The notes below the pieces were generated by a model that was given only the letters and a program-made list of their open reading frames with translations, did not search any database and was not told the DNA's origin. Source: Escherichia coli (GTDB lineage Bacteria; Pseudomonadota; Gammaproteobacteria; Enterobacterales; Enterobacteriaceae). Taken from it: 2,037 nucleotides of DNA. Every line of letters starts with the position of its first letter. Position 1 is the stretch's first letter. This document shows, piece after piece, positions 1,306 to 2,037 of the stretch. Position numbers and translations under genes: made by a program. The stretch is taken from the NCBI RefSeq assembly GCF_003334255.1, contig NZ_QOWU01000141.1, one strand, 5' to 3'.

Positions 1306-1689
1306 ATGTCAAATACATACCAGAAAAGAAAGGCAAGTAAAGAGTATGGTTTATATAATAAATGTAAGAAACTAAATGATGATGAATTATTTCGCTTACT
1401 TGATGATCGCAATTCCTTGAAAAGGATTTCATCTGCCAGAGTATTACAGTTAAGAGGGGGGCAAGACGCTGTTAGATTGGCAATTGAATTCTGCACTGAC
1501 AAAAATTATATCCGTAGAGATATCGGAGCATTTATACTCGGGCAAATATAAATTTGCAAAAAATGCGAAGATAATGTTTTTAATATTTTTAACAATATGG
1601 CATTGAATGATAAGAGTGCTTGCGTTCGAGCTACGGCAATCGAGTCAACGGCCAGGGAAAGATCATCAAAAGTTCACTTTTTGCACTAA
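1306..1689 (+). pseudogene. yibA: yibA-like HEAT-repeat protein (putative Rhs-associated immunity or lethality-reduction protein), disrupted by an in-frame stop and a 3' truncation
   Basis: Translation from ATG 1306 (MSNTYQKRKASKEYGLYNKCKKLNDDELFRLLDDRNSLKRISSARVLQLRGGQDAVRLAIEFCTDKNYIRRDIGAFILGQI) matches my recollection of the E. coli YibA N-terminus. TAA at 1549-1551 interrupts the frame. The same frame then continues as ICKKCEDNVFNIFNNMALNDKSACVRATAIESTA, still YibA-like, before changing to RERSSKVHFLH and stopping at 1687-1689. Full-length YibA is about 280 aa as I recall; only about 128 codons are present. Confidence 0.75.
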
Positions 1690-1784
1690 ATAATTCGCAT
1701 TTTATGTTTAAAAATTGAGATATTCCTTATTACCTGAAGCTGTTTTTTATTGCTTATACATGATCAAATACTCCTTACCTAATT

Positions 1785-1790
1785 AAGGAG
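1785..1790 (+). promoter_or_regulatory. Shine-Dalgarno AAGGAG for the ISAs1-family transposase
   Basis: AAGGAG with a 6-nt spacer to ATG 1797. Confidence 0.65.
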
Positions 1791-1796
1791 AACAAA

Positions 1797-2037
1797 ATGG
1801 AACTTAAAAAATTGATGGAACATATTTCTATTATCCCCGATTACAGACAAACCTGGAAAGTGGAACATAAATTATCGGATATTCTACTGTTGACTATTTG
1901 TGCCGTTATTTCTGGTGCAGAAGGTTGGGAAGATATAGAGGATTTTGGGGAAACACATCTCGATTTTTTGAAGCAATATGGTGATTTTGAAAATGGTATT
2001 CCTGTTCACGATACCATTGCCAGAGTTGTATCCTGTA
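1797..2037 (+). CDS. ISAs1-family transposase (H-repeat-associated protein), N-terminal 80 codons, 3' end beyond the window
   Basis: Translation [80 protein letters not shown] closely matches the N-terminus of E. coli H-rpt proteins (YhhI/YdcC/YbfD family) as I recall them. No stop occurs before the window ends. Confidence 0.9.

Follow-up and report, generated by a model that had tools for sequence, protein, structure and literature searches.

How did a yibA-like gene of Escherichia coli come to end at the very first base of an H-repeat (H-rpt), and at which Rhs locus did this happen? The question is raised by a stretch of 2,037 nucleotides, hereafter the window, in which a yibA-like block is directly followed by the beginning of an insertion element and its transposase gene. 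An earlier note, made from the sequence alone, had assigned the stretch to RhsA because of the yibA similarity and, since H-repeats are associated in K-12 with RhsB, RhsC, RhsE and RhsF but are not known from RhsA, had interpreted the H-repeat as a strain-specific rearrangement in which an ISAs1-family element was inserted into the yibA-like gene.

When the whole window was compared by megablast with 5426 complete E. coli genomes, full-length matches were obtained in thousands of records, including K-12 MG1655, to which the window is identical, base by base, at 2036 of 2037 positions (99.95%). The sole change is a T for G at position 1590, located outside the H-repeat in the adjoining pseudogene; over positions 1560-1800 of the window, the T is common to seven genomes of the 5426-genome set. 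The gene order around the MG1655 match is nikR-rhsB-yhhH-yibA' (a HEAT-repeat pseudogene)-yhhI-yhhJ. Both nikR and yhhJ are located outside the window, and placement at RhsB comes from the mapping onto MG1655 and from the junction counts: the yibA'/H-rpt junction (1805 genomes) goes together with the H-rpt/yhhJ junction (1837 genomes), while the version of the RhsB-type tip found at the RhsA locus is followed by a full yibA, without H-rpt. By this position between nikR and yhhJ, and by its RhsB-type tip followed by yhhH, the window is the distal part of a K-12-type RhsB element, and not of RhsA. Given the near-complete identity with the RhsB locus of MG1655, positions 1653-2037 correspond to the left end of the canonical, already described H-rptB or ISEc1 (yhhI, b3484), which is annotated by RefSeq in K-12 as "yhhI: ISAs1-like element ISEc1 family transposase". 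The list of H-repeat carriers given in the earlier note includes RhsB, and the copy in the window is precisely that one; with the same left junction found in 1805 of the 5426 complete genomes, the rearrangement is not specific to one strain. For the K-12 copies we use the classic H-rpt nomenclature, following secondary citations.

All features of the window are encoded on the plus strand. The 3' end of rhsB (positions 1-846; ORF 7-846, in agreement with the MG1655 annotation) comprises the end of the conserved core, marked by a PxxxxDPxGL motif at about 340-355, and an RhsB-type C-terminal toxin tip. The first 324 bp of the window display 94-95% identity to both the RhsA core and the core fragment located downstream of it. 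The tip is followed by the small ORF yhhH (818-1201 in the ORF list; "protein YhhH" in RefSeq), presumed from its position to be the cognate immunity gene. The first 29 nt of yhhH (818-846) overlap the end of rhsB in a different frame, the usual tight coupling of toxin and immunity genes. A search of the full length of the window against Rfam (E <= 1) revealed no non-coding RNA, and a promoter scan of the window returned no more sites than were found in shuffled sequence.

The yibA-like block (1254-1652) is 97% identical (388/399 by blastn) to yibA of the K-12 RhsA locus, and is composed of 52 bp of upstream region and the first 347 of 843 coding nucleotides, with its ATG at 1306. Similarity ends exactly at 1652, after ...GTCAACGGC, which refines to 1652/1653 the boundary that had been placed near 1654, and truncates the gene at codon 116 of 280. 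Upstream of this point, an in-frame TAA is present at 1549-1551, where intact alleles have AAA. The YibA profile NF007244 matches residues 1-81 only, before the TAA, with 108.9 bits for a cutoff of 275, and no 280-aa ORF is present; the block is likewise a pseudogene in RefSeq. Judged by its coding sequence, the yibA' of the window is a dead pseudogene remnant of a HEAT-repeat RhsA-immunity gene. Intact YibA (HEAT-repeat protein, PRK09687) has been reported to neutralise the C-terminal toxin of RhsA (PMC3150448).

The H-repeat starts at position 1653. Its left terminus, CAGGGAAAGAT (1653-1663), was defined by aligning the ends of the five K-12 copies (H-rptB with H-rptE, H-rptC1, H-rptC2 and H-rptC3); self-comparison had returned mostly chance pairs and missed such short termini. 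The right terminus, ATCTTGCCCTG, lies beyond the window, so that the element measures 1291 bp and ends at window-equivalent position 2943 (7653-8943 in the MG1655 RhsB locus extract, L001). The two terminal repeats are complementary at 10 of 11 positions. The 385 bp located in the window (1653-2037), whose boundaries are common with H-rptE and H-rptC2, are identical to K-12 H-rptB, and the neighbours rhsB, yhhH, the yibA-like pseudogene and yhhJ are the same. H-rptE (ydcC, labelled ISEc5 by RefSeq) and H-rptC1 to C3 (ybfQ, ybfL and ybfD) represent the same 1291-bp unit with CAGGG...CCCTG termini and 95.5-97.9% identity (97.9% between H-rptB and H-rptE, 95.5% between H-rptB and H-rptC2) and, like H-rptB, they are found at the distal end of Rhs elements with flanks devoid of a duplication. 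The H-rptC copies are nested or truncated and contain stops, while H-rptB and H-rptE are intact. At the K-12 RhsC locus (extract L003, 4657-7280), the left end of C2 interrupts C1 at its position 380, and C3 begins 25 nt inside the element, directly after the right end of C2.

In the ISfinder scheme, members of the ISAs1 family are about 1.2-1.5 kb long and possess short imperfect terminal inverted repeats starting with CAGGG. A simple insertion of such an element is flanked by a target-site duplication of 8-10 bp. The size of H-rptB and the ends that it has in common with the other four K-12 copies conform to this description, and the element carries a single ORF for an ISAs1-type DDE transposase, so the family assignment made in the earlier note holds. 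A target-site duplication is lacking at H-rptB, and also at H-rptE; this absence bears on the history of the copy, and not on its family membership. As had been proposed, the transposase ORF starts with an ATG at 1797 preceded by a strong ribosome-binding site, AAGGAG at 1785-1790 with a 6-nt spacer. The first 80 of the 378 codons of yhhI are located in the window (1797-2037), the gene running off its end, and these already match NF033564 ("ISAs1 family transposase") with 65.5 bits (E = 4e-18); full-length YhhI covers this NCBIfam equivalog profile entirely (1-314 of 314) with 412.4 bits for a cutoff of 70, and contains the Pfam domains DDE_Tnp_1_assoc (PF13808, E = 1.9e-33) and DDE_Tnp_1 (PF01609, E = 1.7e-29). 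With dN/dS values of 0.19 in comparison with ydcC and 0.06 in comparison with H-rptC2, the yhhI ORF is, by codon comparison, intact and under purifying selection. A 7-bp hairpin that includes the yhhI Shine-Dalgarno sequence (CTCCTTA-N6-TAAGGAG, 1771-1790) was identified by a scan for terminator-like structures and by RNA folding (-8 kcal/mol, z = -2.7). The seven H-rpt copies compared all possess this hairpin, which might sequester the ribosome-binding site and dampen translation of yhhI from transcripts that read through into the element, as happens in other insertion sequences.

On the right side of the element, the adjacent 66 bp (L001 8944-9009, window-equivalent 2944-3009) correspond to the right terminus of IS1397, a member of the IS3 family, located in REP-like sequence upstream of the yhhJ stop. 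Genomes lacking RhsB resume homology to the yhhJ side directly after this IS1397 stub. With yibA' on its left and the IS1397 stub on its right, the H-repeat thus truncates a gene-like unit on both sides. The yibA'/H-rpt left junction, counted as window positions 1560-1800 at >= 80% coverage, is present in 1805 of the 5426 genomes, about a third, which is about 85% of the 2112 genomes with an Rhs element at nikR. The right end of H-rpt (last 47 bp) joined to the IS1397 stub was likewise counted in 2112 genomes, these equal numbers being totals and not matched genome by genome; the full-length right junction is present in 1837 genomes. On these total counts, the right end of H-rpt seems to be a constant part of the RhsB island.

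A second source of evidence is the comparison with RhsA and with the RhsB loci of other strains. In 1185 complete genomes, an RhsB-type tip and yhhH precede a complete yibA. For STEC1590 and MS1665, the two that were opened, the tip/yhhH/yibA block maps between yibF and mtlA, at the RhsA locus (L005 and L006, 4711-10249), and its yibA allele corresponds residue for residue to the remnant in the window, except for the stop codon and the change at 1590. This block thus occurs at RhsA and RhsB loci in different strains, and yibA-like sequence is not diagnostic of RhsA. The RhsA-locus gene of STEC1590 and MS1665 is called rhsB by PGAP, so that the locus cannot be deduced from the gene name. The K-12 RhsA locus contains a decayed H-rpt remnant between the Imm57 pseudogene and yibH (L002, about 7200-7430), with 78% identity over 225 bp (H-rpt positions 428-651) followed by a right-end-like tail; it was detected by blastn with a 500-bp sub-sequence (E = 2e-46) and in the orthologous loci of STEC1590 and MS1665, and was missed when the whole 20-kb locus was used. 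H-repeat sequence is therefore not wholly absent from RhsA, and the layouts of RhsA and RhsB are alike overall.

Several strains possess a longer array at RhsB. The locus of TUM1223 (L007, 12312-23432) encodes a yhhH-like pseudogene, a full-length yibA, an Rhs fragment, an IS1 and H-rpt, while those of ETEC4067 and CFSAN018748 contain yibG, an Rhs fragment and the Imm57 pseudogene, followed by H-rpt. In these long-form loci, homology to the array downstream of RhsA stops 3 bp before the left terminus of H-rpt, whose right flank does not differ from that in K-12 and whose sequence is 95% identical to the K-12 copy, with an internal deletion of 713 bp. The Imm57'/H-rpt junction is found in only 23 of the 5426 genomes. 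Measured on an RhsA-type array or on TUM1223, the DNA missing between the equivalent of window position 1652 and the left end of H-rpt amounts to about 3.0-3.1 kb. Other features of these loci may be noted. The main Rhs gene of CFSAN018748 is followed directly by yibG (L010, 1245-7673); at RhsB, other strains combine different main toxin tips with nested subsets of the same orphan array, a pattern of C-terminal displacement and deletions; and IS1 insertions recur in the RhsB region of several strains, as well as in H1-H3 and strain 55989.

The model put forward in the earlier note, in which an ISAs1 element jumped into an intact yibA-like gene and merely split it, is in agreement with the junction itself, since the left terminus of the element and the truncated gene to its left meet with base precision (the 30-mer across the junction reads ATCGAGTCAACGGCCAGGGAAAGATCATC), and with a transposase ORF that is intact and under purifying selection. 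The part of this model that concerns a precise junction stands; the part that concerns a simple insertion does not. The sequences flanking the element, gtcaacggc| on the left and |aatacaggac on the right, are unrelated and contain no target-site duplication. Beyond the right end of the element no yibA sequence follows: the last 496 bp of the gene are missing there, and the flank is composed of the IS1397 end and then yhhJ. The split-gene form, with the right end of H-rpt followed by the yibA remainder, was found in 0 of 5426 genomes. When the left and right flanks were joined and used as a query, an uninterrupted empty site was likewise found in 0 of 5426 genomes, the single match covering both flanks (83%) being an IS1B-mediated deletion in which part of yibA' and most of H-rpt are gone. 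As a complete account, simple insertion is already contradicted, and we consider this model very unlikely. The possibility, also raised beforehand, that H-repeats mediate the deletion of downstream orphan toxin/immunity modules is supported, rare RhsB loci having kept a full yibA and about 3 kb of orphan modules between the point equivalent to the junction and an H-rpt with the same right flank.

We therefore consider it probable that H-rptB is resident in the RhsB island and that the K-12 yibA' junction is an IS-adjacent deletion, reached by a one-step or a two-step route. A new neighbour at one end of an IS, the old neighbour at its other end and the lack of a duplication constitute the signature of such a deletion. 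The limits and family of the element, the lack of a duplication, the loss of the yibA remainder, the unchanging right flank and the existence of longer arrays are observed; H-rpt itself would probably have made the deletion. The ancestral RhsA/B-type order would have been core, tip, immunity gene, yibA, a yibJ-type fragment, yibG, another fragment, Imm57 and H-rpt. In the K-12-type RhsB lineage, the left terminus of H-rpt would then have been joined to nucleotide 347 of yibA, with the loss of the orphan modules in between, a segment of about 3 kb comprising the 3' part of yibA, the yibJ-type Rhs fragment, yibG, another Rhs fragment and the Imm57 pseudogene. This might have occurred in one step, by intramolecular transposition of the left end of H-rpt into yibA, or in two steps, a second H-rpt first inserting into yibA and then undergoing homologous recombination with the resident one. 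The first approximately 25 nt of the left subterminal region, the only part that discriminates between the routes when the copies are compared in 100-bp bins, the long-form copies being internally deleted, exist in two types, one found in H-rptB and H-rptE and the other in the H-rptC copies. The K-12 RhsB copy has the H-rptE type (CATCAAAAGTTCAC), unlike the long-form copies, which are of the H-rptC type (CACGTAACGCTAC); this speaks against a one-step event from the same copy and mildly favours the two-step route or a later exchange between copies. The rarity of the long form (23 genomes) also speaks against the deletion model, and, given their 713-bp-deleted H-rpt, none of the present long-form loci is a literal precursor of the K-12 form.

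The polarity of the change can also be read in the opposite direction. The K-12 form would then be ancestral at RhsB, a segment comprising the core, the CT-b tip, yhhH and the 5' part of yibA having been copied from an RhsA-type element and placed, through illegitimate or RecA-dependent recombination, beside an H-rpt that was already present, and the long arrays would be later conversions by RhsA. The numbers (1805 genomes as opposed to 23 with the long form) favour this reading, as does the presence of the same CT-b/yhhH/yibA block in 1185 genomes at the RhsA locus with an allele matching that of the window, a placement seen in the two loci opened; recombination between RhsA and RhsB is documented as well (PMC2935791). 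However, import of a long array requires homology on the right side, where RhsA offers only its 78% decayed H-rpt remnant, while the H-rpt of the long-form loci has 95% identity with the K-12 copy and carries the RhsB-specific right flank; and a truncated gene fused to an IS terminus is a derived, IS-associated breakpoint either way. We regard an ancestral K-12 form as unlikely. Two further readings concern the role of the element itself. In the first, yhhI would be a domesticated transposase, a functional part of the Rhs element and no longer a parasitic IS gene. The fixed position of H-rpt in 2112 genomes, the same number as for the RhsB locus, and an intact ORF with a dN/dS below 0.2 would be expected in that case, as would the fact that H-rpt transposition has reportedly never been observed (PMC3032704). 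The intact terminal inverted repeats speak against it, as do the several copies per genome at varied sites, many of them decayed or nested, which is ordinary IS behaviour, and the internal deletion of the RhsB copy in lineages that have kept the locus, so that we give domestication almost no credence. That H-rpt is an active, deletion-prone or co-opted agent which trims Rhs orphan arrays, and not a passenger, is a reading prompted by the equal counts of 2112, by the selected transposase and by the truncated genes (yibA and IS1397) that abut both of its ends; it seems to us highly improbable, and if true, ISEc1 would shape which immunity genes a strain retains.

The preferred reading, an IS-adjacent deletion, has parallels in known systems. 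Adjacent deletions mediated by insertion sequences such as IS1 are textbook behaviour: the element retains its former flank at one end and is joined to a new target at the other, with loss of the DNA in between and without a duplication on its two sides, all of which is found here as well. The RhsB locus itself offers an actual example of an IS1 deletion, the one that removed yibA' and most of H-rpt, whereas the ISAs1-family case is deduced from comparative anatomy. In the D2 O-antigen cluster of Salmonella enterica, an H-repeat remnant is located at a recombination junction for which a replicative transposition model was proposed, with K-12 yhhI as the reference (PMC3715488). Both cases have an ISAs1-family H-repeat exactly at the breakpoint between two ancestries, interpreted as IS-mediated recombination and not as a simple insertion. 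They differ in outcome, two gene clusters having been joined in Salmonella (cointegrate model), whereas about 3 kb were lost within a single array at RhsB.

For the discovery of new elements the window offers little, its H-repeat being the reference copy of K-12 RhsB that is annotated in every RefSeq K-12 genome. Its interest is in the junction, which is to be seen as a fixed and widespread deletion scar and not as a fresh insertion. As such, it provides a natural example of an orphan immunity gene, yibA, lost next to an insertion sequence, and bears on the erosion of Rhs immunity repertoires.
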